Virus record (IMG/VR): IMGVR_UViG_3300025141_000030
Source of the DNA: a virus
Length of the DNA: 64,000 bases
Reading direction: 5' to 3' (one strand)
Shown: in pieces, positions 9,785 to 59,974 of the stretch
Layout: every line of letters starts with the position of its first letter
Numbering within the stretch: the first letter of the stretch is position 1
Made by a program: the position numbers and the translations under genes
Notes under the pieces: model-generated
Told to the model about the DNA's origin: nothing
The model's input: only the letters and a program-made list of their open reading frames with translations
The model's database searches: none

Positions 9785-10021
9785 ATGATTGAGGCGGTAA
9801 TTTTGGTTTATGTACTGCTGTGCGCAGCACATGTTATGTGGCATGCATTAAGTGCCTCCCAGTCACATCAGCTTTCTAATTTGGCTCGTGGTAAAGAGTT
9901 GACACAATTTTATAACATAAGGGCTAGGCAGTCTCTTTCACATTTAAAATGGGCACCCCTCTGGCCAGTTCCCCTGCTTAGGGGATTGATTGCATTGCTA
10001 AAGTGGCACTTTTCAAGGTGA
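9785..10021 (+). CDS. small membrane protein
   Basis: Hydrophobic N-terminus and WAPLWP segment. Confidence 0.5.
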   Translation: MIEAVILVYVLLCAAHVMWHALSASQSHQLSNLARGKELTQFYNIRARQSLSHLKWAPLWPVPLLRGLIALLKWHFSR

Positions 10022-10826: not shown

Positions 10827-10830
10827 TGCG

Positions 10831-10858
10831 TGTAAATCTAGCGTATTTTTGATAATAT
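10831..10858 (+). promoter_or_regulatory. TGTAAA-N16-TAATAT promoter-like motif
   Basis: Bipartite motif with fixed spacing, repeated before several replication/metabolic genes. Confidence 0.55.
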
Positions 10859-10864
10859 TAACTC

Positions 10865-18518: not shown

Positions 18519-19214
18519 ATGGATTATAAGGATATCACTAAAAATATACGTGAGTCGATGGGACTCCCCAATGACGAGGCTGAGAAGGAAACGCTTACCG
18601 AGGCTTTTGTAGCCCAGCCTAAGAAGTTCGATCTCGGCACCGAGAAGCTCAGTCAAAAGACGAAGACAGCACACCTGGAGCTCTATAACAACTATATATC
18701 GTGCTTCAATCGCACCTCAGCTGAACTGGATGGGGTTTCACGCGACGACGCTAACTCATCGTGCTCCCTTTTTAGGGACATCAAGCTGGCCGAACAGTTT
18801 AACATGGGCGCAGTCTACTTGCACGAACTTTACTTTGCCAATATCGCCTCTCACGCCTCGGAGCTGTCCATGGACTCCCTCACCTATATGCGACTTGCTC
18901 GCGACTGGGGATCGTTCGACCTGTGGCAGCGGGATTTTATCGCCTGCGCCATGTCAGCTCGTTCCGGCTGGGCAGTCTGCTGCTACAACACATACATCCA
19001 GGGCTATGTCAACGTTATAGTCGACGGCCACACTGGAAACGTGCCGATGGGATGCATTCCAGTTATTGTGATGGACATGTGGGAGCATGCCTACTACAAG
19101 GACTACCTCAATAATAAGAAGCAGTACCTCTATAACATGATGAGTGAGCTCAACTGGGACGTTATCGAGAATCGAGTCAAGCGCGCCGAGCGGATGGCGC
19201 AGGTTGCGAGGTGA
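18519..19214 (+). CDS. Fe/Mn superoxide dismutase family protein
   Basis: AHLELY, LHELYF, WGSFDLW, SGWA and DMWEHAYY motifs; N-terminal extension ending LTEA. Confidence 0.85.
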   Translation: MDYKDITKNIRESMGLPNDEAEKETLTEAFVAQPKKFDLGTEKLSQKTKTAHLELYNNYISCFNRTSAELDGVSRDDANSSCSLFRDIKLAEQFNMGAVYLHELYFANIASHASELSMDSLTYMRLARDWGSFDLWQRDFIACAMSARSGWAVCCYNTYIQGYVNVIVDGHTGNVPMGCIPVIVMDMWEHAYYKDYLNNKKQYLYNMMSELNWDVIENRVKRAERMAQVAR

Positions 19215-30966: not shown

Positions 30967-32571
<1,605 letters not shown>

Positions 32572-37481: not shown

Positions 37482-37662
37482 TGAAGTAGGCATGACCTAT
37501 GTCACGCACCTGCTGGGAGCGCTTAGGTTTTCTGTTTTGTCTGCCACCGCTGCATGTCTGTTGCTGATTCACGCATTTTTCCCATTTCTTTTCGTTTCAA
37601 CCGGCTCGACAATAATTAAAAATATTAAAAACGAGATGGTTCACAATGACAGCAACACATGA
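37456..37662 (+). CDS. DUF6356-like small membrane protein
   Basis: HLxxVGMTYxxH...LLIHAFFPFLFxxTGS. Confidence 0.6.
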   Translation: MRLLRRHLDEVGMTYVTHLLGALRFSVLSATAACLLLIHAFFPFLFVSTGSTIIKNIKNEMVHNDSNT

Positions 37663-38488
37663 CACCTGCTCCATGGGTACACCTGTAGTCTTATTCGATG
37701 TTGATGGTACTCTGACCGAGCATCGTCGTGAGCTCAAGCCTCACGTCCTTAAGGCGCTCTTGGAGCTTTCCGAACTAGCCACCATTGGTTTGGTGACCGG
37801 CAGTCCCTTGTCACTTATTGAGGAGCAGATGACATCATTTTTTAGCGCGCAACATGCATCAGTCGCAGAAAATGTTGATATTTTTCCTTGCAATGGTACG
37901 CAGCATTTTTACTGGGAAGCCAGTGACTCTAAGTTTATTTGTTCGTCGAAGTGCTCTATGCGTTCTAAGCTTGGAGAATCACACTTCAGAAAGTTAATTT
38001 TAGTCACGCAAGAGCTTCAGCAGCACTTTATTGAGGATTTTGCACTTCCACTCGACATTCCAGTATGTGGAAATTTTGTGGATTATCGTGGGTCGTTGCT
38101 TAACTGGTGCCCTATCGGCAGAGCTGCAAACTTCGATGATCGAAAGAAGTTCATTGAGCATGATATGTCCTTAGCTATTAGGCAGCAGCTGATGAAAAAG
38201 TTTTTAGATTTAACGGCCGTCGTCCCCGGAATTGCAGTCAATTATGGGGGCCAGACTAGCTTTGACATCTTTCCAGTTGGGTGGGATAAAACTTTCTGCC
38301 TGGGAAGTTATGGGGACTCTGCTGTCTGGTTTGTAGGAGATCGATGTGAGCCAGGAGGTAATGACTATGAGATCTTCGAGGTGGTGAATAAGCACGGTCG
38401 CGCCTTTCAGACAAGCTCGCCTGCTGAGACTGTCAAGATAATAAAGAATATTTTGGTGCCACAAATCACAGATTTTCTTTTGAAGTGA
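37646..38488 (+). CDS. phosphomannomutase, eukaryote-type HAD-IIB
   Basis: LFDVDGTLT, RGSLLNWCPIGR, GGQTSFDIFPVGWDKTFCL, FVGDRCEPGGNDYEI. Confidence 0.85.
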   Translation: MTATHDTCSMGTPVVLFDVDGTLTEHRRELKPHVLKALLELSELATIGLVTGSPLSLIEEQMTSFFSAQHASVAENVDIFPCNGTQHFYWEASDSKFICSSKCSMRSKLGESHFRKLILVTQELQQHFIEDFALPLDIPVCGNFVDYRGSLLNWCPIGRAANFDDRKKFIEHDMSLAIRQQLMKKFLDLTAVVPGIAVNYGGQTSFDIFPVGWDKTFCLGSYGDSAVWFVGDRCEPGGNDYEIFEVVNKHGRAFQTSSPAETVKIIKNILVPQITDFLLK

Positions 38489-40280: not shown

Positions 40281-40727
40281 ATGATTATGAGAATAAGGCG
40301 ATCGACATTTAAGAAGATACTCCAGGAAGAGCTGGGATCCGCCGTGGTTAAGGGGACGGACGGCGGCCTCGGTGAGCAGGTCACGTTTGCAGAGTACACA
40401 TCCCAGAATTTTGATATATGCCCGGGTGCCGTTAAGGCTTTTGTTAGGCTTAAGGACTTGGTTTCCGAACAGGACGAAGTTGCGGTTGCGGAGGATGCCA
40501 TGGAATCTGTCGATGATCTTTTAGGGATTGAAAAGGATGCGCTTGCTAAGGGGTTCGCCACAGAGGATGAGTTTGATCAGATTCTCAATTTAGCCGGCCA
40601 TGCCCGCGTAAAGATTGGGCAACTCGGCGCCTTGATGGGAAAAAGTGTCGCCCAGGACTTTTCCTTTATTAACCAGCATATTATGACTGTTGCAAAAATG
40701 TTAGAGGGTAGACAAGATGAAGATTAA
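40281..40727 (+). CDS. hypothetical protein with conserved leader
   Basis: MRIRRSTFKKILQEEL; NFDICPGA motif. Confidence 0.6.
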   Translation: MIMRIRRSTFKKILQEELGSAVVKGTDGGLGEQVTFAEYTSQNFDICPGAVKAFVRLKDLVSEQDEVAVAEDAMESVDDLLGIEKDALAKGFATEDEFDQILNLAGHARVKIGQLGALMGKSVAQDFSFINQHIMTVAKMLEGRQDED

Positions 40728-41241
40728 CAGAGACAACTTGCGAAATTTAATTGCAAACACAATATCTGAAGAAGTTGGCACCCCCTCTTTTCCGTTAGAT
40801 CCGAACAAGGACGGGAACTTAACCCCAATGGAACTTTTTCATCACTTCGATCTCGACGGTGATGGCCAGGTTTCTGTGCAGGATTACGAAGAGCACGTGC
40901 GATGGCACTGTAAAAACGATGATGGCTTTCAGCAGGAAATGACAATCGAGCAGACGGTGCCGCTCCACCTGGCCGACTCCTCTATTCATGGCACTGGTGT
41001 CTTCGCTACCGATGACATACCAGCAGGAACTAACTTGGGTATTTCTCACATAGCTGCAGGTGATGGGTTTATTCCTACTAACCTTGGTGCCTTTCACAAT
41101 CACAGCGCTGAGCCTAATGCCGGGAATGCCCTACGCCGCGGCGTTCGAAGGATTTTTGCGTTGACTGACATACCAGCTGGGACTGAAATAACCGTGGATT
41201 ATGTCCAGCAACCCGACCTCGAGCAGCCGGATAATTTTTAA
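40717..41241 (+). CDS. leader + EF-hand pair + SET domain protein
   Basis: DPNKDGNLTPME and DLDGDGQVSVQD EF loops; SSIHGTGVFA, NHSAEPNA, DIPAGTEITVDY SET motifs. Confidence 0.8.
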   Translation: MKINRDNLRNLIANTISEEVGTPSFPLDPNKDGNLTPMELFHHFDLDGDGQVSVQDYEEHVRWHCKNDDGFQQEMTIEQTVPLHLADSSIHGTGVFATDDIPAGTNLGISHIAAGDGFIPTNLGAFHNHSAEPNAGNALRRGVRRIFALTDIPAGTEITVDYVQQPDLEQPDNF

Positions 41242-41287: not shown

Positions 41288-42925
41288 GTGAAAATGACTG
41301 TAAATTACGATAAATTTTTTCCCTATGAGTCAATTAGGGAATCCCAGCGTACTGCCATTGAGCGTACGCTTTCTGCTTTTAATGCGGGTAAGCGTTTTGT
41401 AATTGTTGAGGGGGGCACCGGCGTCGGAAAGTCGGCAATCGGTGTGACTGTAGCGCGTTATTTTGATAGTTTTACAACACTCCCAGCGGAGGGGTACAAG
41501 CGTGGCGCTTATTTTGTGACGACCCAAAAGCTCCTTCAGGACCAGTACACCTCTGATTTCGGTATACCATCCGGAGTGATGACGTCTATTAAGTCATCCA
41601 CTAACTATCAGTGCAAGTTTCACAAGACGAACAGTTGTTCAGAATCGCAGTCAGCATTAAGGACGGAGCCTCGAGACAGTAAATTCTTCAAGACGTGCAC
41701 TAAGTCATGCCGCTATAAGCTTGCCAAGAAGGATTTTTTGAATTCTGCCGAGTCGGTTACAAATTTTCCTTACATGCTGACTGAAGCGAACTATTCGGGA
41801 AAAATTGTGCCTCGAGAATTGCTAGTTGTCGATGAGGCACACAATGCCGAGTCGGAGCTAAGCAAGTTTGTGGAAGTCACCGTCTCTGAGAGGTTTTGCC
41901 GACAGATGCTTGACATTCCCTGGCCTCGAAAGACCACGCAGTTCCAGGCATTTAAGTGGATCAGGGACGTCTATTTTCCAAAGATCAAGCGACAGCGGGA
42001 CCATGTCGAGAAGATGATTGACCGATTCTCAGACTTGGAAAAGACGATGAAGGAGTTCGGAAAGATCGCCCGCGAGTTCGACCTCCTTAGGGGCCACTGC
42101 GGGAGGCTTGAGACTTTTCTTAGTGTCTATGATGCCGACAACTGGGTCTTTGAAAATGTTGCCGCCTTTGGTAGGTCGAAGAGAAAGATGACATTTAGGG
42201 CGATTGATATTGCCCCCTTTGCCGATGCCTATCTCCTTAGGCTGGGAGAGCGTGTGCTGCTGATGAGCGCTACGATCCTTGACAAGGAGGCGTTCTGTCG
42301 ATCCCTTGGGATCCGTCAGCCGGATGCCGAATTTATCAGCATTCCGTCTCCGTTTCCCATCGACCACCGCCCGGTCTTTTCGTTAGGTGTTGGGAGTATG
42401 AACAAGAGCAATATCGAGTCCTCCTTGCCTAAATTGACAGCCACGATCCAGGAGATTTTAAACCAACATAAGGGCGAGAAGGGGATTATTCACACCCACA
42501 CATTTCGTATCGCCAAGGCAATTAAATTCGGAATTAAAGGCTCAGCCAGCAAGCGACTTCTAATCCACACATCAGATGATCGCGAGGAGGTCCTGAGGCA
42601 TCACCTGAGCTCCCCTGAGCCTACCGTCCTATTATCACCATCTATGACTGAAGGGGTTGACCTCAAGGGCGACCTGAGTCGCTTCCAGGTGGTCTGCAAG
42701 GTGCCTTACCCCTACTACGGGGATCCCCTGGTGAGAAAGCGAATGAACAAGTGGTCATGGTGGTACCCACTGCAAACAGCCAAGACGCTGATCCAGGCAT
42801 CGGGTCGAAGTATTCGTGACGCTAATGACTACGCCGTTACCTACATTCTCGACGCAGACTGGATATCATTCTTTGGTCGATCCGGTCGTTTCTTTCCTGC
42901 GGACTTTAAGGAAAGGCTTCAGTGA
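41288..42925 (+). CDS. DinG/XPD-like superfamily 2 helicase
   Basis: RESQ Q-motif, GTGVGKS, DEAH, MSAT, EGVD, KVPYP, QASGRSIR. Confidence 0.88.
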   Translation: MKMTVNYDKFFPYESIRESQRTAIERTLSAFNAGKRFVIVEGGTGVGKSAIGVTVARYFDSFTTLPAEGYKRGAYFVTTQKLLQDQYTSDFGIPSGVMTSIKSSTNYQCKFHKTNSCSESQSALRTEPRDSKFFKTCTKSCRYKLAKKDFLNSAESVTNFPYMLTEANYSGKIVPRELLVVDEAHNAESELSKFVEVTVSERFCRQMLDIPWPRKTTQFQAFKWIRDVYFPKIKRQRDHVEKMIDRFSDLEKTMKEFGKIAREFDLLRGHCGRLETFLSVYDADNWVFENVAAFGRSKRKMTFRAIDIAPFADAYLLRLGERVLLMSATILDKEAFCRSLGIRQPDAEFISIPSPFPIDHRPVFSLGVGSMNKSNIESSLPKLTATIQEILNQHKGEKGIIHTHTFRIAKAIKFGIKGSASKRLLIHTSDDREEVLRHHLSSPEPTVLLSPSMTEGVDLKGDLSRFQVVCKVPYPYYGDPLVRKRMNKWSWWYPLQTAKTLIQASGRSIRDANDYAVTYILDADWISFFGRSGRFFPADFKERLQ

Positions 42926-43656
42926 GAATTATTCCTATTAGTGACCTTCATGTTGACAAGATGAGGCCAGGGACGTTGGAGGAGATGATCGAGGCCATTC
43001 CCGGCGATATTGATGTGCTAGTTGTCGCCGGAGATGTGAGTGATTCTGCAGGAAGAGTCCCGTCTCTTTTTCAGGCGCTGTGTGGGCGATTTAAAGATGT
43101 CATTTATGTCCTGGGTAATCACGAGTATTACCACAACTCAGTTGAGGATTTACGCGGTATAATGAGCGGACTGGTCGATACATACACTAATCTTCACTGG
43201 CTGGATAATAGCACCGTAACTTTGGGTGGCGTTAGGTTTGTTGGGTCCACGCTTTGGTTCCCATTTCAGGAAGCGAACAAGGCATACGAGCGACCTATGA
43301 GTGATTTTGGTCAAATTCCAGAATTTCGTGAGTGGGTGTATCAGGAGAATCGAAAGGCGCGGGATTTTTTACAGGATACGATCAGGTCAGATGATGTGGT
43401 GATTACTCACTTCTTGCCAAGCGATCGATCTGTGGCACACCAGTACATGGCATCGCCATTTAACAGGTTTTTTGTGTGCTCAATGGATAGCCTGATTGAG
43501 GAGGTGCAGCCTCGATACTGGATTCACGGCCACACCCACTCTGCCTGCCTCTATAAAATTAATAAAACGAGTGTGGTGTGTAACCCTTTTGGGTATGAAA
43601 TAATAGATGAGGTTAGCGGTTTTTGTCCGTGGTTGATCCTGGAGATTGAAGTATGA
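42922..43656 (+). CDS. calcineurin-like metallophosphoesterase
   Basis: SDLH, AGD, GNHEYY, THFLP, HGHTH. Confidence 0.88.
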   Translation: MRIIPISDLHVDKMRPGTLEEMIEAIPGDIDVLVVAGDVSDSAGRVPSLFQALCGRFKDVIYVLGNHEYYHNSVEDLRGIMSGLVDTYTNLHWLDNSTVTLGGVRFVGSTLWFPFQEANKAYERPMSDFGQIPEFREWVYQENRKARDFLQDTIRSDDVVITHFLPSDRSVAHQYMASPFNRFFVCSMDSLIEEVQPRYWIHGHTHSACLYKINKTSVVCNPFGYEIIDEVSGFCPWLILEIEV

Positions 43657-44660
43657 TAAGTGCAATTTGTTTCGACGATGTTTTACTGGTACCACAAATG
43701 TCCACAATTAAATCTAGGGCAGAGATTGATATTGGGTCTAGCTTGGATAGCAATATTCGACTTGATATTCCCATAATTTCTAGCCCTATGGACACTATTA
43801 GTACATCACCAATGGCCTCGGCCATGGACAGCCTGGGCGGTATGTCAATTATTCATCGCTATAATTCAATAGACACCCAGTGTCGACATGTTGAGTGCCT
43901 GCCAGCCGATCTTGCCGTTGGAGCAGCTGTTGGTGTCAGTGGTGATTATATTGAGCGGGCTACCGCGCTTTATGATGCCGGCGCCCGAATTCTATGTGTG
44001 GACATTGCCCATGGTCACCACATCCTTATGAAGAAGGCACTTATTTCTTTGCGTGAAATTTTTGGCGATGTGGTGCATCTAATGGCAGGCAATGTAGCCA
44101 CGCTGGAAGGATTTAATGACCTTGCTGATTGGGGAGCCGATTCTATTCGGGTGGGAATAGGAGGCGGAAGCATATGCTCCACCCGCACACAGACAGGCCA
44201 TGGTATGCCAACGCTAGAGTCGATTATGAGGTGTGCTCAGTCAGATCGAAATGTAACACTAATTGCTGATGGCGGCCTTAGGACATCAGGGGATATTGTA
44301 AAGGCCTTGGCGGCTGGTGCTGACTTTGTCATGCTGGGATCCATGCTCGCTGGAACAGAGGAGTCCCCTGGTGAAATGATTGTTGTGAACGGGGAGGCAC
44401 GAAAGGTCTATCGTGGAATGGCGAGTAAGGACGCGCAGATTGATTGGCGTGGCCACACTGCATCGATCGAGGGGGTCTCTTCCACTGTTCCTTATCGTGG
44501 GAGTGTTCGAGGTCGTATTGATGAGATCTGCACCGGGATACGTAGCGGCCTGTCATACGCAGGGGCTCGGAACATTTCAGAATTGCAGGCGAAGGCCCAG
44601 TTTATGAATCAGTCCTCCTCAGGAACGAGGGAGGGGCTTACCCACATTAATTTGCGATGA
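43653..44660 (+). CDS. GMP reductase / IMP dehydrogenase family (no CBS domains)
   Basis: [40 protein letters not shown]. Confidence 0.88.
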
Positions 44661-44920
44661 ACAAGCGGTGGAAAGTCTATATAGTTTGTTGTGCTGACAA
44701 CTCGCTGTACACAGGTATTACGGTGGATCTTGACAGAAGGTTGAAGGCCCACAATTCAGGTCGCGGCTCTAAATATACACGCAGCAGAAGGCCGGTGACT
44801 TTAGTTTATGTGGGGCCTGTTGTCGAGCAAGGTGATGCCTTGAGGGAGGAAAAGAGAATTAAATCTTTAACTAGGGCTCAAAAATTAATGATAATAAAGG
44901 AATATTCCGAGGAGGAATAA
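44657..44920 (+). CDS. stand-alone GIY-YIG nuclease (UPF0213-like)
   Basis: VYIV..DNSLYTGIT..RRLKAHN.G.GSKYTRSRRPV..ALREE..IK. Confidence 0.85.
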   Translation: MNKRWKVYIVCCADNSLYTGITVDLDRRLKAHNSGRGSKYTRSRRPVTLVYVGPVVEQGDALREEKRIKSLTRAQKLMIIKEYSEEE

Positions 44921-45852
44921 TGGCAATTGATAAGCACTTTTATAACGAAGCATCCGCTGCGAAGCTCAGCTGGGATCCCTCTTGGTTTGGTGAGGAAGAG
45001 TTTGGAGAAGAGCTGATAAAGGCAGTTAAAAAGTTTCAGCGGTCTCACGGCCTCACTGCTGACGGGCTAGTTGGACCAGTAACATATCGACGTATCTGGA
45101 CCGATCGAGAGGCAAACATTAGCGCTACATCTGCCGGGCCATCTGGCAGGCTGATGAGGGTTTCTTCCAATAATCACATTGTGCACAATGGCAATCTTTA
45201 TCCTATTGACTGGGATGCCGTTGTGCTGTGGGATGAGGCTGATGGACTGACCACGAAGGAGGGTCAGTACTACTCTTACGCTGGAAAGCCCGATCGAAAG
45301 CCAACACTTTTTGTCAATCATTGGGACGTTTGTTTATCATCCAAGTCCTGCGCTAAGGTGCTTGCACAGCGCGGCATATCAATTCATTTTTGTATTGATA
45401 ATGATGGCACCATTTATCAGCTTTTAGATACCCAGCACGGCGCCTGGCATGCCGGAGGTCGTTCTTGGAATCAATCGAGTATCGGTGTGGAGATTAGTAA
45501 CGCGTACTATCTTAAGTACCAACAGAACTATGTGAAGATGGGATTTGATGAGCGACCGCTTGTTGAGGGAGCCACATGCCATGGTCAAAATATGAAGCCG
45601 TTTACAGACTTTTATCCAGTTCAGCTGGAGGCGCTAAAGGCGCTTTGGGTCGCCGTTCACAATGCAGTTGGCATTCCGCTTGAGTGCCCAACTGATGATG
45701 ATGGCAAGCTTGTGACAACAGTAGATGCAGATAGCATTAATAATAAATTTGAAGGTTTCGTTAACCATTACAATCTTACACGTAAAAAGATTGACTGCGC
45801 AGGCCTTGACCTAGTTGGTTTGCTGCAGCAGGCCAAGGCAATGAAAGGATGA
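44920..45852 (+). CDS. endolysin: peptidoglycan-binding domain + N-acetylmuramoyl-L-alanine amidase
   Basis: AVKKFQRSHGLTADGLVGPVT; SIHFCID.DG.IYQ, AWHAG, SIGVEI, H...KID. Confidence 0.85.
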   Translation: MAIDKHFYNEASAAKLSWDPSWFGEEEFGEELIKAVKKFQRSHGLTADGLVGPVTYRRIWTDREANISATSAGPSGRLMRVSSNNHIVHNGNLYPIDWDAVVLWDEADGLTTKEGQYYSYAGKPDRKPTLFVNHWDVCLSSKSCAKVLAQRGISIHFCIDNDGTIYQLLDTQHGAWHAGGRSWNQSSIGVEISNAYYLKYQQNYVKMGFDERPLVEGATCHGQNMKPFTDFYPVQLEALKALWVAVHNAVGIPLECPTDDDGKLVTTVDADSINNKFEGFVNHYNLTRKKIDCAGLDLVGLLQQAKAMKG

Positions 45853-45853
45853 T

Positions 45854-47425
45854 ATGATTACAGTAACAGGGGATAATGTTTATCCAGAAATTTTAACACG
45901 AGAGGCGTTGGTCTTTCTTGAGTCGCTGCATACTATGTTCATGCCTATTAGAAATGAGCACCTTACCACCCGTGCTGAACTAGCGCAGCATCGCAGGACC
46001 ACAGGATCGGGCCTAGATTTTCCATTTGTTACTGCAGGTGTTCGATCAGCCGACTGGAAGTGCGCCCCCATCCCACCAGACCTCCGCGACCGCCGTGTCG
46101 AGATTACCGGTCCCACTGATCGAAAGATGGTTATAAATGCCTTAAATTCAGGAGCCAAGGTATTCATGGCGGACTTTGAGGACTCTTTGTCACCTACGTG
46201 GAGCAATGTCATGGAGGGCCAGGTTAATTTACGTGATGCCGTTAGGGAGACTATCACATATGAGCATCCTACCAAAGGAACGTACAAGCTGCAGGACTCG
46301 CCTGCCGTTTTAATGGCCCGTCCTCGAGGCCTCCACCTGTTAGAGGAAAATATCTGCGTTGACGATGAGCCGATGTCGGCCAGCCTTGTTGACTTCGGGC
46401 TTTACTTTTTTCATAACACACAGGCCTTAATTGAAAAAGATTCTGGTCCGTATTTTTACCTACCTAAGCTTGAATCGGCCGGCGAGGCTAATCTATGGAA
46501 CTGCATATTTGAGTATGCTCAGGACTACCTGGGTGTTCCCCGAGGAACTATTCGGGCGACCGTGTTGATTGAGACGCTTCCAGCTGCCTTCGAGATGGAG
46601 GAAATTTTATATGCTCTGCGCGATCACTCTGCTGGTCTTAACTGCGGCCGCTGGGATTACATCTTCAGCTATATAAAGACCGTCGGCCATGACCCAAGGT
46701 ATATCTTGCCGGATCGATCTCAGGTGACAATGACGTCTCCCTTTATGGACGCTTACGTTCGTAAGCTTATTGACACCTGCCACCGTCGCGGAGTGCATGC
46801 CATGGGAGGCATGGCAGCTCAGATTCCTATTAAGAACGATCCCCAGGCTAATAGGTTGGCTTTGGAGGCTGTGAGTCGTGACAAGTCTCGCGAGGTTAAC
46901 ATGGGCCATGATGGGACATGGGTCGCTCATCCTGCGCTGGTTTCGCTAGCCACAGAGATTTTTGACTCGGCGATGCCCTCTCCTAACCAGATAAGCGTAC
47001 CCACAGCTGCAGACATTATTGCTGTGTCAGCTTCTGACTTGGTTTCACCAGCTACGGGTACCTCTACTCGCGAGGGATTAATTAAGAACATTGACATTGC
47101 ATTGCGATATATAGAATCGTGGCTGCGAGGAGCCGGGTGTGTTCCGCTTTATAACATGATGGAAGACGCAGCTACAGCCGAGATATCCCGAGCCCAGATC
47201 TGGCAGTGGGTATATCATGGATTGACGCTGGATTCTGGTGAGCTAGTCACAATGAAACTTGTCAATGATTACATTGCTGATATTGTTGGTAAAATTCAAA
47301 ATGAGCATAAAAACTTTTTAGAAAGCAGGATCGAGGATGCAGCCTGGATTCTTCGGGAGACTACCCTTGCTAGTGAGATGACTCCCTTTTTAACACTTGA
47401 AGCATATGAAATGCTGGAGAACTGA
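45854..47425 (+). CDS. aceB: malate synthase A
   Basis: RRVEITGP, MADFEDS, RPRGLHL, YLPKLE, LNCGRWDYIFS, DGTWVAHP, MEDAATAEISRAQ. Confidence 0.96.
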   Translation: MITVTGDNVYPEILTREALVFLESLHTMFMPIRNEHLTTRAELAQHRRTTGSGLDFPFVTAGVRSADWKCAPIPPDLRDRRVEITGPTDRKMVINALNSGAKVFMADFEDSLSPTWSNVMEGQVNLRDAVRETITYEHPTKGTYKLQDSPAVLMARPRGLHLLEENICVDDEPMSASLVDFGLYFFHNTQALIEKDSGPYFYLPKLESAGEANLWNCIFEYAQDYLGVPRGTIRATVLIETLPAAFEMEEILYALRDHSAGLNCGRWDYIFSYIKTVGHDPRYILPDRSQVTMTSPFMDAYVRKLIDTCHRRGVHAMGGMAAQIPIKNDPQANRLALEAVSRDKSREVNMGHDGTWVAHPALVSLATEIFDSAMPSPNQISVPTAADIIAVSASDLVSPATGTSTREGLIKNIDIALRYIESWLRGAGCVPLYNMMEDAATAEISRAQIWQWVYHGLTLDSGELVTMKLVNDYIADIVGKIQNEHKNFLESRIEDAAWILRETTLASEMTPFLTLEAYEMLEN

Positions 47426-47432
47426 CTAAGAA

Positions 47433-48677
47433 ATGACTGACAGATGGAACGGGATTAAAAGGGATTACACGGAGGAGGATGTAAATCGCCTGCGTGGAAG
47501 CATTAGGGTTGAGCACACTCTTGCTCGAAGGGGTGCCATACGCCTTTGGCAGGCGATGACATCAGGTGCGACTGTTCGTGCCTTAGGAGCCCTGACTGGT
47601 AATCAGGCTGTTCAGCAGGTGCGCGCCGGCCTTGGAGGTGTTTATGTTAGCGGGTGGCAGGTTGCTGCTGACAATAATCTTTCTGGTCACATGTACCCGG
47701 ATCAGAGTCTTTATCCTGCCAACAGCGTTCCTAACCTTGTCAAGAAAATAAATCAAGCGCTGCAGCGTGCTGATCAGGTCGAGAGCTCGGAAGGCGAAGT
47801 AAGTCGAGATTGGTTTGCCCCTATCGTCGCTGATGCCGAAGCAGGCTTTGGCGGACCGCTCAATGCCTTTGAGATGATGAAGGGCATGATCGAGGCCGGA
47901 GCTGCCGGCGTTCACTTTGAGGATCAGCTAAGCTCTGAAAAGAAGTGCGGCCACCTCGGCGGCAAGGTGCTAGTTCCAACATCCCATTTTATTCGCACCC
48001 TGAAGGCTGCCCGCCTTGCTGCTGATGTCATGGACGTCCCGTCCGTTTTAATTGCGCGCACTGATGCCAACAGCGCCAAGCTTTTGACTTCCGACGTGGA
48101 TGAGAGGGATCGCCGATTTATTACGAGAAGTGGAGGCACCCTTGATCGGACTCCGGAAGGATTTTATAGGATAACAGGCGGACTAGATGTGGCGATCGCA
48201 CGTGGCCTAGCCTACGCGCCGTATGCTGACATGATCTGGTGTGAAACATCAACACCCAGTATAGAAGAGGCACGCCAATTTGCTAGCGCAATTCATGAAA
48301 GATTCCCCGGGAAGATGTTGGCATACAACTGCTCGCCTTCATTTAACTGGTCAAAACACCTGAAAGCCCCTGAGATTCGTACATTCCAGGATCAGCTTGC
48401 TGAAATGGGATACATGTTTCAGTTCGTGACATTGGCTGGGTTTCATTCCCTTAACATGGGAATGTTTGAGCTGGCCAGAAATTATGAGAGCACTGGGATG
48501 AAGGCATATTCAGAACTTCAAAATCATGAGTTCAATCAGGCGCATCTCGGCTACACGGCCGTTAAGCACCAGCGCGAGGTTGGGACTGGTTACTTTGATG
48601 ATGTCTCTAACGTGATATCAGGAGGCACATCTTCTACTACTGCTATGGCTGAATCTACTGAGTCGGAGCAATTCTGA
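47433..48677 (+). CDS. aceA: isocitrate lyase
   Basis: [61 protein letters not shown]. Confidence 0.97.
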
Positions 48678-48686
48678 GAGTGTATA

Positions 48687-50381
48687 ATGCAACACAATTC
48701 GAGGCCTTTTGATGTTCGTTATTTAACGAACCCACCACAGGTCGAGCTAAGGTCGCTGGCCCTTGATCACACTCCTTGTGTTTTTGAGACAGCCTACGGC
48801 AATATTATGAAGGTGAGCCGGAATAAGGCTCGAATGGCTAAGTATACCTACGTCATAGATAGCTTAGATAATTCCTATCTTTATTCACACCAGGTCATGG
48901 AGCGCCCTCAAGCTGACGCTCTTATTGATAGGCAGCGCCAGTATATCGAGGCCCGTGGTGAGCTGATCGATATCCGGGGCTCTTTGGGGGTAGGTTCGAG
49001 AGCTGTGCCGGTGCAGTGGCTTTACACACTCGAGGCTGCCAACATTGCGGGCATGCAGGCACATATGACATTCTTGGATAGCAGCGCTGCTCCTGATCCT
49101 ACATTTCAGATAATTTATACGCCAGGCCTCCAGCTTGAAGATATGCCAGGTGGCCAAGTCATATTGGTGGATTTGGCAAATTACATCACGTACATCATCG
49201 GGCCCGATTATTTTGGTGAGTCTAAGAAGGCAGCACTGCGTATGCTCAATGACTACGTTTATGAGAGAGGTGGCCTTGTGCTTCATGCAGGTGCTAAGCT
49301 TGTAGAAAAGGATGGTGAGCGCATGACAATGACAATCATGGGCTTATCTGGCACTGGGAAGACGACGACAACATTTTCACGCCAGGGTGATTTAACGCAG
49401 CCAATTCAGGACGATATGGTCGCGATCTGGCCCGAGGGAGAGATGTCAGTTACAGAGTCCGGGTGTTTTGCCAAGACATTTGGACTGACTCGATCAGCTG
49501 AGCCAGTTATTTATGATGGCACTTTAGATCCATCGGCTTGGGTAGAAAATACTTTTATTGACGAAGTCGGCCGGTTTGATTTTCACAAGACAGCTATGAA
49601 TAAGTTTGATGTCCATCGCTTTAGGGCCGTCTTAAATTTAACCGGTTTTGACGATGATAAAATCGAGGCATTTCTTTCTGGTGAGATAGATCGAGAGTGT
49701 GTAGTCGATAATACAGGTGTGCTTGAGGATGGGTGGGAATTTATTGATTGGACTCAAAACGGTCGGTCTGTTATACCCATGTCGGTCATCGAGAATGTAG
49801 CTGACCTTACCAATATTCCCAGCGTCTCCAGCATGGGTATTTTAAACAGAGATGAAGGCACCGATGCCGGCACCCCAGGCATTGTAAGGTTTTCAAGTCC
49901 GGATCAGGCAGCAGCCTATTTTATGTTGGGGGAGACCACGAAGACCTCGGCAGCCGGTAAGGAAGTGGGCAAGACACGGTCTCCCTTCACACAGCCGTTT
50001 TTTCCCCGATCTTTCGGCCTTCAAGCTAGCAGGTTTTCTGAGCTGGTGGCATCGATGCCGTCTACGAGCTTGTGGATGATGAACACGGGATATGTAGGAT
50101 CCAATATTAAGGTGAAGATTCGTCACTCCTCAGCTATGCTGGAGGCGCTTTTGGCGGGCAATATTGCCTGGAAGACCGATCCTGATTTTGGCTATGACAT
50201 TGTGGACATAGATTCCCCGGCTAATGTCGACCTCCTCGCCACCGTCCCGGCTGAGATATTAAATCCCACCCTCGCTATTGAGGAAGAGATATACCGGGAC
50301 TGGGTTGAACGAATGAAAAAAGATCGCCGTGAGTTTCTACGATCTCATAATGTCGCCGCGACTATTATTAATACAATTTAA
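48687..50381 (+). CDS. pckA: phosphoenolpyruvate carboxykinase (ATP-type, divergent)
   Basis: YFGESKK, LHAG, GLSGTGKTT, QDD, ExGCFAK, NGR, NTG motifs. Confidence 0.85.
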   Translation: MQHNSRPFDVRYLTNPPQVELRSLALDHTPCVFETAYGNIMKVSRNKARMAKYTYVIDSLDNSYLYSHQVMERPQADALIDRQRQYIEARGELIDIRGSLGVGSRAVPVQWLYTLEAANIAGMQAHMTFLDSSAAPDPTFQIIYTPGLQLEDMPGGQVILVDLANYITYIIGPDYFGESKKAALRMLNDYVYERGGLVLHAGAKLVEKDGERMTMTIMGLSGTGKTTTTFSRQGDLTQPIQDDMVAIWPEGEMSVTESGCFAKTFGLTRSAEPVIYDGTLDPSAWVENTFIDEVGRFDFHKTAMNKFDVHRFRAVLNLTGFDDDKIEAFLSGEIDRECVVDNTGVLEDGWEFIDWTQNGRSVIPMSVIENVADLTNIPSVSSMGILNRDEGTDAGTPGIVRFSSPDQAAAYFMLGETTKTSAAGKEVGKTRSPFTQPFFPRSFGLQASRFSELVASMPSTSLWMMNTGYVGSNIKVKIRHSSAMLEALLAGNIAWKTDPDFGYDIVDIDSPANVDLLATVPAEILNPTLAIEEEIYRDWVERMKKDRREFLRSHNVAATIINTI

Positions 50382-50384
50382 ACC

Positions 50385-50412
50385 TGTACATCTTATAAAC
50401 TGTGATTAAATT
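50385..50412 (+). promoter_or_regulatory. TGTACA-N16-TAAATT promoter-like motif upstream of dnaK
   Basis: Same bipartite motif and spacing. Confidence 0.5.
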
Positions 50413-50442
50413 AAGGCAGTTACGTTGAAAGGATGGACCAAT

Positions 50443-52302
50443 ATGTCTAATAAGGTAATTGGAATTGATTTGGGCACCACAAACTCTTGTGTTGCTGTTA
50501 TGGAGTCCGCAGGACCCGTAGTTATTACGAACGAAGAGGGGTCGAGAACGACTCCTTCTGTCATTGCATATACGAAGGGCGGAGAGCGCCTCGTCGGCCA
50601 GCCTGCCCGTAGGCAGGCTGTTACTAACCCGAGCAATACAATTTCCTCAGTCAAGAGATTTATGGGGCAGAAGTTTAAGGATGCCAAGTCGGAAGCGACA
50701 ACAGTCCCCTATGATATTGCATCTGGTAAGGGTGGAGCGTGTGTAATTAAGGTAAACAACAAAAAGCTTACCCCTCCTGAGATAAGCGCGCAGGTTATAG
50801 TCAAGCTGAAAAGAGCAGCTGAGGAGTACCTAGGCAGCGAGATAACGCAGGCCGTGGTCACAGTTCCTGCTTACTTCAACGATGCCCAGCGCCAGGCCAC
50901 CAAGGACGCCGGCAAGATCGCTGGCCTGGAAATTAAGCGCATCATCAACGAGCCGACTGCCGCTGCGCTGGCGTATGGCATGGACAAGGGATCTGACCAG
51001 ACAGTCGTGGTGTATGATCTTGGAGGCGGTACTTTTGATGTCTCCGTCTTGGAAATCGGCGACGGTGTGGTGGAGGTGCTCGCTACTAATGGGGACACTC
51101 ACTTGGGCGGCGATGATTTTGATAACACGATTATTGAGTGGATTTTAAGCGAGTTTAAGAAGGACACAGGGATTGACGTGTCCGGCGATAAGATGGTGCT
51201 GCAGCGAGTTAAGGAAGCTGCAGAGAAGGCGAAGATCGAGCTTTCTAGCACGCAGCAGACTGATATTAACCTGCCCTTTCTTACGGCAGACGCCACAGGT
51301 CCCAAGCACCTGCAGCTTACTTTGACCCGATCTAAGTTTGATCAACTGACTTCAAAGATAGTAAAGAGGACAATGACACCTGTCAAGAGTGCGCTGAAGG
51401 ACTCTAAGTTAACCGTTGACTCTATCGATGAGGTAATTTTGGTGGGGGGTTCTACTAGGATTCCGGCTATCCGCAATGCTGTCGAGAAATACTTCGACAA
51501 GGAGGCGAATAGGTCAGTTAATCCCGATGAGGTGGTGGCGCTTGGCGCCGCCGTCCAGGGTGGCGTTTTTACAGGGGAGGTCAAGGACGTCCTCCTGCTG
51601 GATGTCACCCCTCTCTCACTTGGTATCGAGACGCTAGGTGGGGTCATGACAAAACTGATCGATCGCAACACGACGATACCGTGTGAAAAGAGCGAGACAT
51701 TTAGCACAGCTGCAGACAACCAGTCTGCAGTTGAGATTCATGTTCTCCAGGGAGAGAGGCAGTTTTCCAATGACAACAAGACCCTTGGCAGATTTAATCT
51801 AACGGGGCTTCCCCCTGCTCCTCGAGGCATACCACAGATTGAGGTGACTTTTGGGATTGACGCTGATGGTATTGTAAATGTCTCGGCTAAGGACAAGGCG
51901 ACTGGCACTGAACAGTCGATTAGGATCGAGGGCACCGGCTCGCTAAGTGACAGCGATATAGATCAGCTTGTGAAGGATGCGGAGCTCCATGCAGATGAGG
52001 ACCAGCAGAGGCGTGAAAGGATTGAGGAGCGTAATAAGTTGGACTCTTTAATTCATGGCTTCGCCGCGGTGGTGACTGACCAGGGTGACAAGGTTGATCC
52101 GGAAGCCCTGGAGGCCGCCAACGCAGCCCTTACTGCAGCTAGGGAAGTGCTAGAATCTGATGGAGATTTTGCCGCTGCTAACGCCGACCTCCAGGCTGCA
52201 TCGTCTGCTTTCGCATCATTGCTTTATCAGGCGCAGCCTGAGCCTGAGCAGGAGGATGTGATTGATGCAGACTTCGAGGAGGAAGCACCTAAAAATGATT
52301 AG
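50443..52302 (+). CDS. dnaK: Hsp70 chaperone DnaK
   Basis: [53 protein letters not shown]. Confidence 0.97.
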
Positions 52303-52525
52303 GGTGTTTTTGACTGTTTTTACGTGTGTGTTTTTAACGAGCTGCGCACATTGGTCATATCCAGTGAGGGGTGAGTGCCCCACGGAGCATCCGATAAAGG
52401 GTAATGTAGATTCGATGTATTATCATTCGCCTGCGGATACGTATTATTATAGGACATGGGCTGAGTTTTGCTTTGAGAGTTCAAGCATAGCACGAAATCA
52501 CGGTTATAAGAGAACTCCACGATAA
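52295..52525 (+). CDS. small lipoprotein with IKGN...YH...CF...GY domain
   Basis: LTSC lipobox; IKGNxxSxxYHxP...EFCFxSxxxAxxxGY. Confidence 0.6.
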
Positions 52526-53471: not shown

Positions 53472-54002
53472 ATGTTTAGGCGGCATAGGCGAGACTACCC
53501 CCAGTACTTTTTATCTGCCAAGGTGGAGGTGAGGCCATCCGAGGTGCATGGAGTCGGGGTATTTGCCAAGGCAAAGATCGAGGCACATGAGCTGATAGAG
53601 GGCGCCCCTGTTATATTGTTTCATACTGACACCAAGGACGTGCTTCGGGAAGCCTACAGCAGCGATCACGTTTTAATGGATTATCCCTTCACGTGGTCAT
53701 CGTCACAGCTGGCTTTCTCTTTGGGCTACGGCGGCATCTATAATCACTCTACGTATAATCCCAATGCAACCTGGCAGGTTAATGAGAAGCTAACTACACT
53801 GGATTTTTATAGTCGACATGTCATTGAGCCTGACACAGAAATTGTTACGCGATATATTTCTCTTCGTCGATGTGAAGATGGAGACTTGTGGTTCGAGGAT
53901 CCTGCTGTTGAGCCTAAGCTGGGCAACCTTTATTCTGAGCCAGAGGCGATAAGCAAGGCTAACTTTTTTGATTTTATAACTAAGGGACCAACAAAGAAAT
54001 GA
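53472..54002 (+). CDS. SET domain protein
   Basis: SEVHGVGVFA, GYGGIYNHS..PNA, IEPDTEIVTRY. Confidence 0.8.
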   Translation: MFRRHRRDYPQYFLSAKVEVRPSEVHGVGVFAKAKIEAHELIEGAPVILFHTDTKDVLREAYSSDHVLMDYPFTWSSSQLAFSLGYGGIYNHSTYNPNATWQVNEKLTTLDFYSRHVIEPDTEIVTRYISLRRCEDGDLWFEDPAVEPKLGNLYSEPEAISKANFFDFITKGPTKK

Positions 54003-55031: not shown

Positions 55032-55625
55032 GTGCGTTACTTTCTTGTCCTAATCTTAGCTTTGTTTGTAGGCTGTTCACCAGTCAATGCGACTGACCCG
55101 GAACCTGTCGAGCCTGAACCCGCACCCGAGCCTGAACCTGATCCGATGCCCTGGGTGACCTGGGAGGAGTGCGGTGGCTCAGAGGGTGACCATGCCTGTA
55201 ATGTGGTGCTCCAGGACCAGAACGGCGACGAGTTTAACCTGTACGAGCAGTTCGGCTCCATCATTGTCCTGGACTTCTCGACGATGTGGTGCGGCCCCTG
55301 TAACCAGGCGGGCATGCATTCCCAGGACGTCCAGGACCAGTATCGGGACCAGGGAGTCGTTTACGTCACGGTGCTGATAGAGAATGGGCAGGGCATCCCT
55401 CCCACACTCGCCGATATTCAGGACTGGGTCGACGCCTTCGACGTCACCGATTCTCCAGTCCTTGTCGGCGATCGGACACTGCTTCAGAGTGGTGGCGGCC
55501 CGTGGCCCCTGCAGTCCTGGCCGACGTTCTATTATATAGACAGGGAGATGGTGATTCGGGACATAGACCGCGGCTATAACGGCCAGGAGGTTATCTACTC
55601 CATCGAGTGGATGCTGTCACTGTAG
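55032..55625 (+). CDS. TlpA/redoxin-like thioredoxin-fold lipoprotein
   Basis: FVGC lipobox, PE linker, DFSTMWCGPC, WPTFYYID. Confidence 0.82.
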   Translation: MRYFLVLILALFVGCSPVNATDPEPVEPEPAPEPEPDPMPWVTWEECGGSEGDHACNVVLQDQNGDEFNLYEQFGSIIVLDFSTMWCGPCNQAGMHSQDVQDQYRDQGVVYVTVLIENGQGIPPTLADIQDWVDAFDVTDSPVLVGDRTLLQSGGGPWPLQSWPTFYYIDREMVIRDIDRGYNGQEVIYSIEWMLSL

Positions 55626-56729: not shown

Positions 56730-56995
56730 TGACACTGTCCTCAGACCAGGCTTGGAAGGTCTTCACCACACTGCTGGCGGTGCTGGTGGTGCCCCTGGCC
56801 GGCTGGGTCTGGAGCATGAACGTCGAGGTGGCCCAGCTCCGCAATGACCTGGGTGACCTGGAGGGGATCGTGGCAGACATCGACCGCCAGGTCGAGGAGC
56901 AGGAGGAGGCTTCCCGGACGTTGATCGGGGTCGAGAAGGACGTTGAGCACATTAGGGAGATCCTTGACAGGATCGAGATACTGGTGACCCGATGA
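56729..56995 (+). CDS. membrane-anchored coiled-coil protein
   Basis: N-terminal TM followed by heptads; TAATG coupling. Confidence 0.55.
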   Translation: MTLSSDQAWKVFTTLLAVLVVPLAGWVWSMNVEVAQLRNDLGDLEGIVADIDRQVEEQEEASRTLIGVEKDVEHIREILDRIEILVTR

Positions 56996-57225
56996 AGATG
57001 CTGACCATCGGGCTGGCTGTCGCCTACCTGGGACTGCTGGGGATGTCGTCGACCGCGCTGACGGACCTGTCGGATATCCAACGTGACGCCCTGGCACTGG
57101 AGCTCTACCTCCAGGACCGACATGACCACACGGAACACTGTCCGGAGCTGGCGTGGGAACAGCCGAAGCTGGGCACCTACAAGGAGGAGCTGCGGTCGCA
57201 GCTACCGGAGGAGTGTAAGGCATGA
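56992..57225 (+). CDS. small exported/membrane protein
   Basis: Hydrophobic N-terminus; ATGA overlaps. Confidence 0.5.
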   Translation: MKMLTIGLAVAYLGLLGMSSTALTDLSDIQRDALALELYLQDRHDHTEHCPELAWEQPKLGTYKEELRSQLPEECKA

Positions 57226-57419
57226 AAGTTGACTTTCCATACGGCCCGGGAGATATCATCCTGACAGGTCGGTTCAAGAACAAGCGGACAGTCGTCCGAG
57301 AGATCGGGGAGGACGAGTACGGCCACCCGACTGTCAACGGCAAGCCTGCATTGAACTTTAAGATAGAGAAACTGCTACCCAAGGACATGTGGAGCAGGAA
57401 GTCAAGGGAAACGAAATGA
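57222..57419 (+). CDS. small hypothetical protein (GRFKNK...PTVNGK domain)
   Basis: GGAGGAG RBS; GDIILTGRFKNK...DEYGHPTVNGK. Confidence 0.6.
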   Translation: MKVDFPYGPGDIILTGRFKNKRTVVREIGEDEYGHPTVNGKPALNFKIEKLLPKDMWSRKSRETK

Positions 57420-57781
57420 GGCTTACAAAGGGAAAACTTAGAAGGATCATTCGAGAAACCATGCAACCTCTCATGGATCCCCTCTTTAACATGAGAGAGA
57501 TGTGCAAGGAATTCACTCTTCTTGAGGATCACCTGAACCAGCCGGATATGCAGTGCCACGATTGTATTAACAAGCATCTGATGAAGTGCGAGGCTCTGGC
57601 TGAAGAGGCGTTATCACTTGATAACCAAAACCAATATCCGTTCATTAAGGCAATCCCTAATATGATTCGAGGGTGGCATAAACATGTTCTTGATGGTGGG
57701 CCTCTTAAAGACCTCGCGTCAGCAATTCGTTCAGTCCGGAAAGAGTTAACACCACTCGTAGCGGGGAGATTTGAAACATGA
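57416..57781 (+). CDS. leader-bearing protein with CxDCxxKH motif
   Basis: MRLTKGKLRRIIRE; DPLFNMRE..K...LLEDHL...CHDCINKH...EALAEEA. Confidence 0.65.
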   Translation: MRLTKGKLRRIIRETMQPLMDPLFNMREMCKEFTLLEDHLNQPDMQCHDCINKHLMKCEALAEEALSLDNQNQYPFIKAIPNMIRGWHKHVLDGGPLKDLASAIRSVRKELTPLVAGRFET

Positions 57782-58993: not shown

Positions 58994-59974
58994 ATGCGTC
59001 TTGGCAGGCACCAGCTTCAGGATCTCATAAGGGACGTCCTCCTGGAGGAGTGCCTGTTGCGAGAGTCATCCGCCCAGGACCAGACCAAGGCTGCCTATAA
59101 GGCCATCTTCATGGCCGGCTGTCCGGCCGCTGGAAAGGGTACTGTCAAGGATGTCATTATCCAGGCCTTTCCTTTCGCATCGAGTATCTTTAAGGATGTC
59201 AACGTGGACACTATGTACGAGTTCCTGCTTAAGAAGCATAAGGTAGGCCTTCAGGATCCGGCGACGTCCCGTGCTACTACACCATATCCTGAAGGGCATC
59301 CGCTTGCAGATATAATTGACGTGGTCCCAGCGGAGGAGACTGAGGCCTTTAGAGCCGAACGCTCTAGTTATCGCTCCGCAGCTGCCAAGCACATGGGGAG
59401 GGCGAAAGCAGCTGTGACTGGCGGTGCCCACGGGATGAATCCCGAGCACCTCGGTCTGGATCCTTCCGAGTATTCCGGTCCGAAAAAGCGCAAGGAGTCG
59501 GCTACGAGCAGGTTGGAGGACTTTGTTAATAACGGCCTAGGCGTGATCATCGATGGTACTGCAGCTAATTTTGACAGGGTGGTTCGTGAGAAACAGCTGC
59601 TCGAGGACATGGGATATAGGACCATGATGATAGTGGTCAAGGTTCCGCCTGAGGAGGCTGTCGGACGTAACATCGGCCGGGGTGAGAAGGACCGCAGGAG
59701 CATTGGTCATGACGTGCTATACAGGCAGTGTCTTCAGCTGGTCGGCGGCGTCGATCCAAATGATCCGGAAGGCGAGCCCATCGTCGGCGTCCTTAATAAG
59801 TACCGGCCGGTTTTTGGGGAGGACAATTTTATTGAGATTGACAACACTCTTCCTACCTCCGAGACTGTGACTCCGGAGGTGAAGAGCAAGGTCTCGAAGT
59901 TCCTTTCGCAGCCGCTGTCTTCGATTGCCCAGGAGCGTGAGGACCTAAAGCTCAAGGCCAAGCAGCGTTCCTGA
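58994..59974 (+). CDS. P-loop kinase (zeta-toxin/AAA_33-like) with conserved leader
   Basis: AIFMAGCPAAGKG Walker A, IIDGT, GYxTMMIxV, RN..R; MRLGRHQLQDLIRDVLLEE. Confidence 0.75.
   Translation: MRLGRHQLQDLIRDVLLEECLLRESSAQDQTKAAYKAIFMAGCPAAGKGTVKDVIIQAFPFASSIFKDVNVDTMYEFLLKKHKVGLQDPATSRATTPYPEGHPLADIIDVVPAEETEAFRAERSSYRSAAAKHMGRAKAAVTGGAHGMNPEHLGLDPSEYSGPKKRKESATSRLEDFVNNGLGVIIDGTAANFDRVVREKQLLEDMGYRTMMIVVKVPPEEAVGRNIGRGEKDRRSIGHDVLYRQCLQLVGGVDPNDPEGEPIVGVLNKYRPVFGEDNFIEIDNTLPTSETVTPEVKSKVSKFLSQPLSSIAQEREDLKLKAKQRS

Follow-up and report, generated by a model that had tools for sequence, protein, structure and literature searches.

The 64,000-nt stretch of IMG/VR record IMGVR_UViG_3300025141_000030 analysed here (the window, to which positions without a prefix refer) carries three adjacent genes, aceB, aceA and a pckA-like gene, with the predicted products malate synthase A (MS), isocitrate lyase (ICL) and a protein of the phosphoenolpyruvate (PEP) carboxykinase (PEPCK) family, that is, the glyoxylate shunt followed by a candidate exit from it (Table 1). 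Gaps of 7 nt (47426-47432) and 9 nt (48678-48686) separate aceB from aceA and aceA from pckA, and directly 5' of aceB lies an amidase gene whose stop falls one base ahead of the aceB start. An earlier inspection of the letters alone (the sequence-only reading) had described three adjacent intact genes with these gaps, the motifs KKCGH, GRWDY, EDAAT and GLSGTGKTT, a flanking phage endolysin and an embedding among phage genes. All of this was borne out: the open reading frames (ORFs) lie exactly at the positions of Table 1 with catalytic residues kept relative to E. coli, every motif is present, the flanking product belongs by its PHROG matches to the endolysins and has an Amidase_2 and a PG_binding_1 domain, and tail sheath, tail tube, baseplate hub and a gp32-like single-stranded DNA-binding protein (SSB) are encoded on the same 128-kb contig.

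All three Pfam MS domains (MS_N, MS_TIM-barrel and MS_C) were found in the aceB product (2.7e-111), which scored 739.5 bits against TIGR01344 (malate synthase A), above the equivalog cut-off of 594.5, and showed 53% identity with E. coli K-12 AceB. Residues R156, E240, D268 and D438 align with E. coli R166, E250, D278 and D447 and are all kept; from the work on 3CUZ we take Asp447 to be the catalytic base and Glu250 and Asp278 to be Mg ligands, with Arg166 as a further catalytic residue. GRWDY and EDAAT are located at residues 265 and 437. The aceA product matched the Pfam ICL domain (1.4e-105), exceeded both isocitrate lyase cut-offs (NF011645, 727 bits against 562; TIGR01346, 586.9 bits against 275.9) and was 62% identical to E. 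coli K-12 AceA, with identity at 20/20 active-site positions checked and a KKCGH loop formed by K170-K171-C172-G173-H174, which includes the catalytic Cys. Judged on these residues, the two genes encode an apparently active malate synthase A and isocitrate lyase. No family in PHROGs v4 matches the MS, ICL or PEPCK of the cluster.

The product of the third gene matched Pfam PEPCK_ATP (PF01293) with 161.6 bits against a gathering cut-off of 26.5 (3.6e-47), and failed all NCBIfam PEPCK cut-offs, the best score being for NF006821 (277 bits vs 369), with TIGR00224 at 93 vs 590. Its cellular relatives likewise fall under the NF006821 cut-off (250–285 bits for phage and cellular members together). 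Because it scores below these cut-offs, as do the cellular relatives, the protein is assigned from its sequence to a separate, divergent branch of the PEPCK family and not to the PckA equivalogs. The sequence-only reading of the trio as a shunt plus pckA is therefore right for aceB and aceA, but the third gene is a divergent family member and not a canonical pckA. Identity with E. coli K-12 Pck is 27%, and E. coli R65, Y207, K212, K213, H232, S250, K254, T255, D268, D269, K288, E297 and R333 are kept, which covers all metal-, phosphate- and oxaloacetate/PEP-binding positions. The P-loop (kinase-1a) motif GLSGTGKTT is at residue 219, the adenine-pocket residues R449, I450 and T455 are conservatively changed to K, V and S, and an insertion of ~50 residues separates the kinase core from the part of the protein around R333. 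An AlphaFold (AF2) model built from 52 homologues (predicted local distance difference test, pLDDT, 87.5; predicted template modelling score, pTM, 0.88) superposed over its full length on the ATP-type PEPCKs of Thermus, E. coli and T. cruzi (E ~1e-34, template modelling (TM) score 0.75–0.86).

In a collection of 5.8 billion proteins, the closest relatives of this PEPCK were ten clusters that were 69–76% identical and 564–568 aa long, followed by a step down to a tier at 57–63% identity and 575–617 aa, comprising Myxococcota, Planctomycetota, Gemmatimonadota and WOR-3 metagenome-assembled genomes (MAGs). The first cluster beyond the phage set (P0016) was located among ordinary bacterial genes. 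In FastTree phylogenies the 12 phage sequences formed a long-stemmed monophyletic clade (support 100), which grouped with the divergent cellular branch, its placement relative to the cellular members not being resolved by the tree. The cellular proteins, annotated as 'phosphoenolpyruvate carboxykinase (ATP)', share with the phage proteins the 57–63% identity, the length class and the internal insertion, whereas the phage proteins form their own clade, are 15–40 residues shorter and are encoded at ~49% GC vs 63–69%. In five Myxococcota genomes (6.4–8.7 Mb) the divergent-branch gene was the sole PEPCK_ATP match, and no GTP-type PEPCK was found in the same genomes. Since it is the only PEPCK of these five genomes, the branch probably works as a PEPCK.

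The third gene might instead encode a protein with a PEPCK fold and another substrate or phosphate donor, in which case the cluster would be aceBA plus an unknown kinase or carboxylase. The scores of 250–285 bits in phage and cellular members, far under the equivalog models, would agree with this, as would the low identity to E. coli Pck, the insertion and the altered adenine pocket. We nevertheless regard it as improbable, given the retention of the metal-, phosphate- and oxaloacetate/PEP-binding residues and of the P-loop, a model whose fold match extends over the full length, the position of the branch as the only PEPCK in the five Myxococcota genomes, and the recruitment of a canonical PEPCK instead by a second aceBA phage (G002, below).

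Identical proteins and the same gene string were found by exact-protein look-up in JGI 3300002514, ENA ERZ27249081 and ERZ27249063, Logan SRR5251701 and NCBI GCA_002998485.1, and BLASTN against four of these assemblies gave 99.8–100% identity over 8–19 kb. The cluster junctions are common to at least five independent assemblies and to three diverged syntenic relatives (L002, L031 and L039). ENA contig k141_440360 (128,404 bp), which contains the window and was surveyed upstream of it gene by gene, encodes the structural proteins of a T4-type tail (a baseplate gene product, a 1013-aa tail sheath, a tail tube matching phrog_4542 at 1e-34 and a baseplate hub) together with RecA, DnaB, RNR, ThyX, PolA and the gp32-like SSB; the tail tube, baseplate hub and SSB were confirmed by a PHROGs search. 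Inside the window lie genes for DnaE, thymidine kinase, a DHH phosphoesterase, GroEL, a sigma factor, a helicase and DnaK, and the trio is flanked by the endolysin-like gene, the helicase (phrog_2488) and DnaK (phrog_22485). The longest contig found for this phage is 141 kb, and the survey downstream of the window returned short contigs only. The phage was found in oxygen-deficient-zone water of the Eastern Tropical North Pacific (ETNP); GCA_002998485.1 is a co-assembly of ETNP oxygen-deficient-zone metagenomes from 60–300 m (preprint).

In GC content (0.48–0.51), codon usage (cosine 0.94–0.95) and GC at third codon positions (GC3), the trio is indistinguishable from the other window genes, while the nearest cellular PEPCK genes have a GC content of 0.63–0.69, 15–20 points higher. 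Because of this phage-like composition against high-GC cellular counterparts, and with the junctions recurring across assemblies and relatives, the cluster is neither an assembly chimera nor a recent host insertion, the outcome that the sequence-only reading had named as fatal to it; it is a true auxiliary metabolic cluster, long resident in an uncultured large marine myovirus whose tail and replication genes are T4-like. A host fragment misjoined to phage DNA, or a cellular contig taken for a phage, would be a familiar error, given that such metabolic genes are typical contaminants of viral bins and that several GenBank 'phage' aceA or pck records are likely to be host DNA. Here it is effectively excluded by the recurrent junctions, the phage genes on both sides with structural genes on the same contig, the GC distance from the nearest cellular homologues and the placement of all three genes in phage-dominated clades. 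Those GenBank matches (Salmonella, Escherichia, Listeria and Staphylococcus) were short unannotated fragments or Salmonella chromosomal contigs, and were set aside as a group and not record by record. A provirus island at the cluster was also considered and rejected, there being no tRNA gene in the window, no integrase among the annotated ORFs and no shift in composition (a check of the locus and not of lysogeny itself).

IMG/VR contains 25 contigs with an MS that is 51–70% identical to that of the window, and ICL directly follows MS in 23 of the 24 contigs with a full-length match; the exception (L010) ends 82 bases past MS. Three larger aceBA contigs (102–201 kb) also encode the gp23 capsid protein and large terminase. 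The sequence-only reading had looked to gene phylogenies for phage-specific clades and a donor lineage, and such clades were recovered for all three genes: beside the 12 PEPCK sequences, 26/27 viral MS formed one clade, with a sister group that includes Myxococcota, and 23/25 viral ICL fell in an 87-row clade without a named cellular member, with a sister group that includes Myxococcota and Planctomycetota. Each gene of the trio is thus placed in a phage-dominated clade, and L020 represents a separate acquisition in the MS and ICL trees. As to the donor, the nearest cellular groups are Myxococcota-rich for all three genes, in FastTree topologies of moderate support. The GC content of the phage (49%, vs 63–70% in those bacteria) argues against Myxococcota as its present host. 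The complete 156-kb genome of phage C48C1 (OQ984149.1, Kyanoviridae) encodes a lone isocitrate lyase (44175-45416; L001:11995-13236), annotated as a hypothetical protein and 54% identical to that of the window.

The order amidase-aceB-aceA-pckA was conserved in 4/4 contexts checked, namely the window, L031 (a 165-kb contig), L002 and L039 (70% PEPCK identity). Within IMG/VR the divergent PEPCK occurs on one contig only, L002 (66 kb, a record estimated to be 27% complete), which is syntenic with the window over 35.7–59 kb. Between the phage relatives the proteins are 70–88% identical and synonymous sites are saturated, so that a dN/dS ratio is not computable; the comparison indicates purifying selection in a qualitative sense only. 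In 9 IMG/VR loci of diverged phages, a homologue of the amidase (Amidase_2/PG_binding_1) adjoins aceBA on one side or the other.

A further aceBA phage, G002 (IMGVR_UViG_3300020477_000013; 201 kb, 73% complete, T4-like, with gp23 and terminase), has aceBA at ~182.2–184.9 kb and a canonical PEPCK at 164496-165785 (L089:8434-9900; 572 bits), 16 kb away. This protein shares 43% identity with E. coli Pck and 28% with the PEPCK of the window, all its catalytic residues are intact and the GC content of its gene is phage-like; by sequence comparison, G002 thus pairs the shunt with a predicted PEPCK for a second time, independently. Canonical PEPCK genes were found on at least 80 IMG/VR contigs, giant-virus bins included. 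The 636-kb record LR756504.1 ('uncultured phage', a huge phage) also has an unannotated canonical PEPCK at 555718-557199 (L088:5629-7203; 708 bits), and no ICL was found in that record. The canonical viral PEPCKs of IMG/VR, LR756504.1 and giant-virus MAGs resemble the protein of the window in being virus-borne with intact catalytic residues, and G002 in having aceBA as well; they differ in that they are 25–28% identical to it, were acquired independently and are in no case contiguous with aceBA.

Viral aceA and aceB have been reported from Pacific Ocean viromes (Hurwitz et al. 2013, PMC4053976), and an aceBA operon was described in the complete 179-kb marine viral genome TARA_ERS478052_N000008 (Nishimura et al. 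2017, PMC5332604). The latter is likewise a large marine phage with T4-like structural genes in which the isocitrate lyase gene comes directly after that for malate synthase A, and both it and the window encode a eukaryotic-type phosphomannomutase (PMM) and a zeta-toxin-like kinase; however, its gene table has no carboxykinase, whereas the window has PEPCK 9 nt after aceA and the amidase before aceB. The MS and ICL of the window fall in the same phage-dominated clades as those of the IMG/VR aceBA contigs. In huge phages, 98 ICL and 22 MS genes have been recorded, adjacent in 20 genomes, along with glutamine synthetase (preprint 10.1101/2025.02.27.640493). The large phage described here shares with them the adjacent MS and ICL and a glutamine synthetase, in this case just upstream of the window (a small protein of 338 aa), while the main text of that preprint makes no mention of a carboxykinase. 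Compared with E. coli, the same three activities are predicted, with catalytic residues kept in MS and ICL at the identities given above, but aceK and iclR are absent and the PEPCK is of a different branch; the three genes are contiguous in the phage, while bacterial pckA normally lies apart from aceBA. pckA has been listed as an auxiliary metabolic gene in trench viromes (PMC12448302), and a search of a literature collection for pckA together with aceA or aceB in a virus found nothing relevant.

Accordingly, the phage aceBA pair is already published and viral PEPCK alone is already catalogued. What is new is the contiguous aceB-aceA-pckA cluster kept in a small phage clade (four contexts), the membership of its PEPCK in a divergent branch found mainly in Myxococcota-type bacteria, and a second aceBA phage lineage that independently has a canonical PEPCK 16 kb from aceBA. 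The sequence-only reading had called such a three-step module unusual; this is correct for the contiguous trio, which is rare (its PEPCK occurs on one IMG/VR contig and in ~11 protein clusters), but not for the shunt in a phage, and the occurrence of PEPCK alone on many predicted viral contigs reduces the unusualness further.

If the three enzymes are made during infection, ICL and MS would divert isocitrate and acetyl-CoA into succinate and malate and so avoid the two CO2-losing steps of the tricarboxylic acid (TCA) cycle. Host malate dehydrogenase (with succinate dehydrogenase and fumarase) would supply oxaloacetate, which the phage PEPCK would decarboxylate and phosphorylate to PEP. The phage would thereby control a path by which C2 units (from fatty acids, acetate and storage lipids) reach PEP, which could feed gluconeogenesis and, through it, the hexose and pentose phosphates needed for nucleotides and glycans. 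A possible downstream partner is the phage's own PMM, a homologue of which is directly beside aceB-aceA in 8 other IMG/VR loci whose sequence reaches far enough (L004, L006, L011, L012, L013, L015, L022 and L023), while a ninth (L005) has a partial match where its contig ends; it is this adjacency in related phages that suggests the link to sugar phosphates, a link not mentioned in the published accounts of phage aceBA cited here. That shunt-derived C4 acids are drawn out as PEP for sugar phosphates is, in our estimate and as far as gene content can tell, a proposition with slightly better than even odds, favoured because of the classical role of PEPCK alongside aceBA and because of the hexose-phosphate mutase beside aceBA in the wider phage clade. 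The proposal of the sequence-only reading, that carbon is redirected to sugar phosphates and nucleotides, gains from the PMM neighbour, but the same genes also fit a PEP-glyoxylate cycle or a carboxylating PEPCK.

The first of these is the main rival to a gluconeogenic fate. In a slow, carbon-limited or TCA-impaired host, the enzymes would take part in an energy cycle that oxidises carbon fully to CO2, with a gain of NADH and ATP and a bypass of isocitrate and 2-oxoglutarate dehydrogenases. ICL, MS and PEPCK, all three jointly encoded by the phage, are the enzymes of the E. coli cycle that replaces the TCA cycle at low substrate uptake (PMC3094070), and viral aceAB was proposed by Hurwitz et al. 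to serve energy supply in deep water poor in nutrients (PMC4053976). The origin from an oxygen-deficient zone and the stress and proteostasis genes (superoxide dismutase-like protein, peroxiredoxin, DnaK and GroEL) are also in keeping with such a cycle. No phage gene returns PEP to acetyl-CoA, however, the conserved aceBA neighbour in related phages is a sugar-phosphate mutase, which points to anabolism, and the cycle has been demonstrated in E. coli only; on balance we consider it unlikely.

Alternatively, PEPCK could act as a carboxylase (PEP + CO2 + ADP to oxaloacetate + ATP), the direction used by succinate-producing anaerobes, and provide oxaloacetate for citrate, aspartate and pyrimidines under low oxygen while the shunt conserves carbon. 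The ATP-type PEPCKs of Actinobacillus and Anaerobiospirillum, which operate as carboxylating enzymes, are among the structural matches of the phage model, the habitat is oxygen-deficient water, and genes of nucleotide metabolism are abundant (thymidine kinase and the IMPDH-like protein in the window; ThyX and RNR upstream). Against this, the shunt is already anaplerotic, so that a second anaplerotic enzyme beside it would be redundant, and textbooks give PEPCK a cataplerotic part beside aceBA, for instance when cells grow on acetate; a carboxylating role therefore has only a slim chance of being correct.

A more far-reaching reading, to which we give a probability of roughly 0.35, is that marine phages have twice independently joined PEPCK to the viral shunt, once as a divergent Myxococcota-type enzyme in an aceB-aceA-pckA operon and once as a canonical PckA 16 kb away. 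Several observations weigh against the gluconeogenic main reading. PEPCK is reversible, and ICL, MS and PEPCK together also define the catabolic PEP-glyoxylate cycle (PMC3094070). No characterised member of the divergent branch was found, its phage and cellular members miss every NCBIfam PEPCK cut-off, and the adenine pocket of the phage protein is altered at three positions. In the window itself PMM lies 7 kb upstream of aceB and is not adjacent. All nine large viral contigs with canonical PEPCK that were tested (three of them at least 91% complete) had no ICL, so a viral PEPCK can do without the shunt. Conversely, no PEPCK was seen in 12 other aceBA records, which are 5–57% complete. A general co-occurrence of shunt and PEPCK in viruses is unsupported on the same counts.

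Earlier readings of phage aceBA saw it as serving energy supply or as helping lysogens to grow, and the conserved contiguous pckA points to PEP as the exit of shunt carbon from the cycle. A vague idea of host 'reprogramming' thereby becomes a testable pathway, with three clonable genes and standard E. coli mutants, and the cluster lengthens the list of genes with which phages of oxygen-deficient ocean water act on central carbon metabolism. It also draws attention to a divergent PEPCK branch that is the sole PEPCK in the five large Myxococcota genomes checked and lies outside the curated models. Should the two joinings prove real, selection would favour a virus-encoded route from acetyl-CoA to PEP, the cluster would be the first virus-borne module across the boundary between the TCA cycle and gluconeogenesis, and it would provide the first functional handle on this widespread divergent branch.

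Table 1. Features of the window discussed in the text (positions within the 64,000-nt stretch unless a contig label is given).
Feature	Position	Strand	Basis or remark
aceB: malate synthase A, 523 aa	45854..47425	+	TIGR01344; three Pfam MS domains
aceA: isocitrate lyase, 414 aa	47433..48677	+	NF011645; KKCGH loop
pckA-like: PEP carboxykinase family protein (ATP type, divergent branch), 564 aa	48687..50381	+	Pfam PEPCK_ATP
Endolysin-like protein, Amidase_2 + PG_binding_1	44920..45852	+	Pfam; PHROG endolysin and amidase families
Co-directional string helicase-metallophosphoesterase-IMPDH/GMP-reductase-like-GIY-YIG-amidase-aceB-aceA-pckA-dnaK	41288..52302	+	Tight packing
Phosphomannomutase (PMM), eukaryotic-type HAD	37646..38488	+	PF03332, 2e-38
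IMPDH/GMP-reductase-family protein, 335 aa	43653..44660	+	Upstream of cluster; no CBS domain detected
SET-domain proteins, two, small	40717..41241; 53472..54002		One weak match
GroEL, full-length	30967..32571		Above NCBIfam equivalog cut-off
DnaK, full-length	50425..52302	+	Above NCBIfam equivalog cut-off
ArfC-family ORF, small	52262..52525		Right after dnaK
Fe/Mn superoxide dismutase C-terminal domain protein	18519..19214		
AhpC/TSA peroxiredoxin	55032..55625		
Zeta-toxin/AAA_33-like kinase	58994..59974		
Minus-strand ORF	56741..57577	-	Only minus-strand ORF of its region
Giant ORFs, six (864–2167 aa)	198..2792; 3237..7802; L032:3488-9991; L036:2416-6534, 6813-9992, 10291-13269		No Pfam/PHROG match above threshold

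The genes of the co-directional string from helicase through dnaK overlap or are spaced by at most 43 nt, no terminator-like site was detected between them in a promoter/terminator scan, and the same scan found promoter-like sites at chance level; the string probably forms one transcription unit, to judge from this layout. Its gene order is also present in L002, L031 and L039. The IMPDH/GMP-reductase-like protein scored below all NCBIfam equivalog cut-offs, and all close relatives keep its gene 5' of the cluster; in L092–L094 it adjoins the canonical PEPCK. The two SET-domain genes flank the metabolic string and are kept in L031 and L039.

Together with ClpP, encoded upstream, the GroEL, DnaK and ArfC-family genes make up an unusually complete proteostasis set for a phage, and the two oxidative-stress genes (superoxide dismutase domain protein and peroxiredoxin) are notable in that this phage comes from oxygen-deficient water. 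Immediately ahead of the window (L032:290-1306, 1356-2288; L034), genes for the small glutamine synthetase, a nucleoside deoxyribosyltransferase, Fpg, an HhH-GPD glycosylase, ClpP, RNR and ThyX represent a broad metabolic and repair load, and the six giant ORFs lie between the tail and replication genes. Two independent assemblies, L027 and L028, end at ~56600–57700, beside the minus-strand ORF, and this stretch may be a variable or repeated spot. The relative with 70% PEPCK identity (L039, BOPT01004612.1) encodes a TubZ-like tubulin (L039:15687-16820), as some jumbo phages do.

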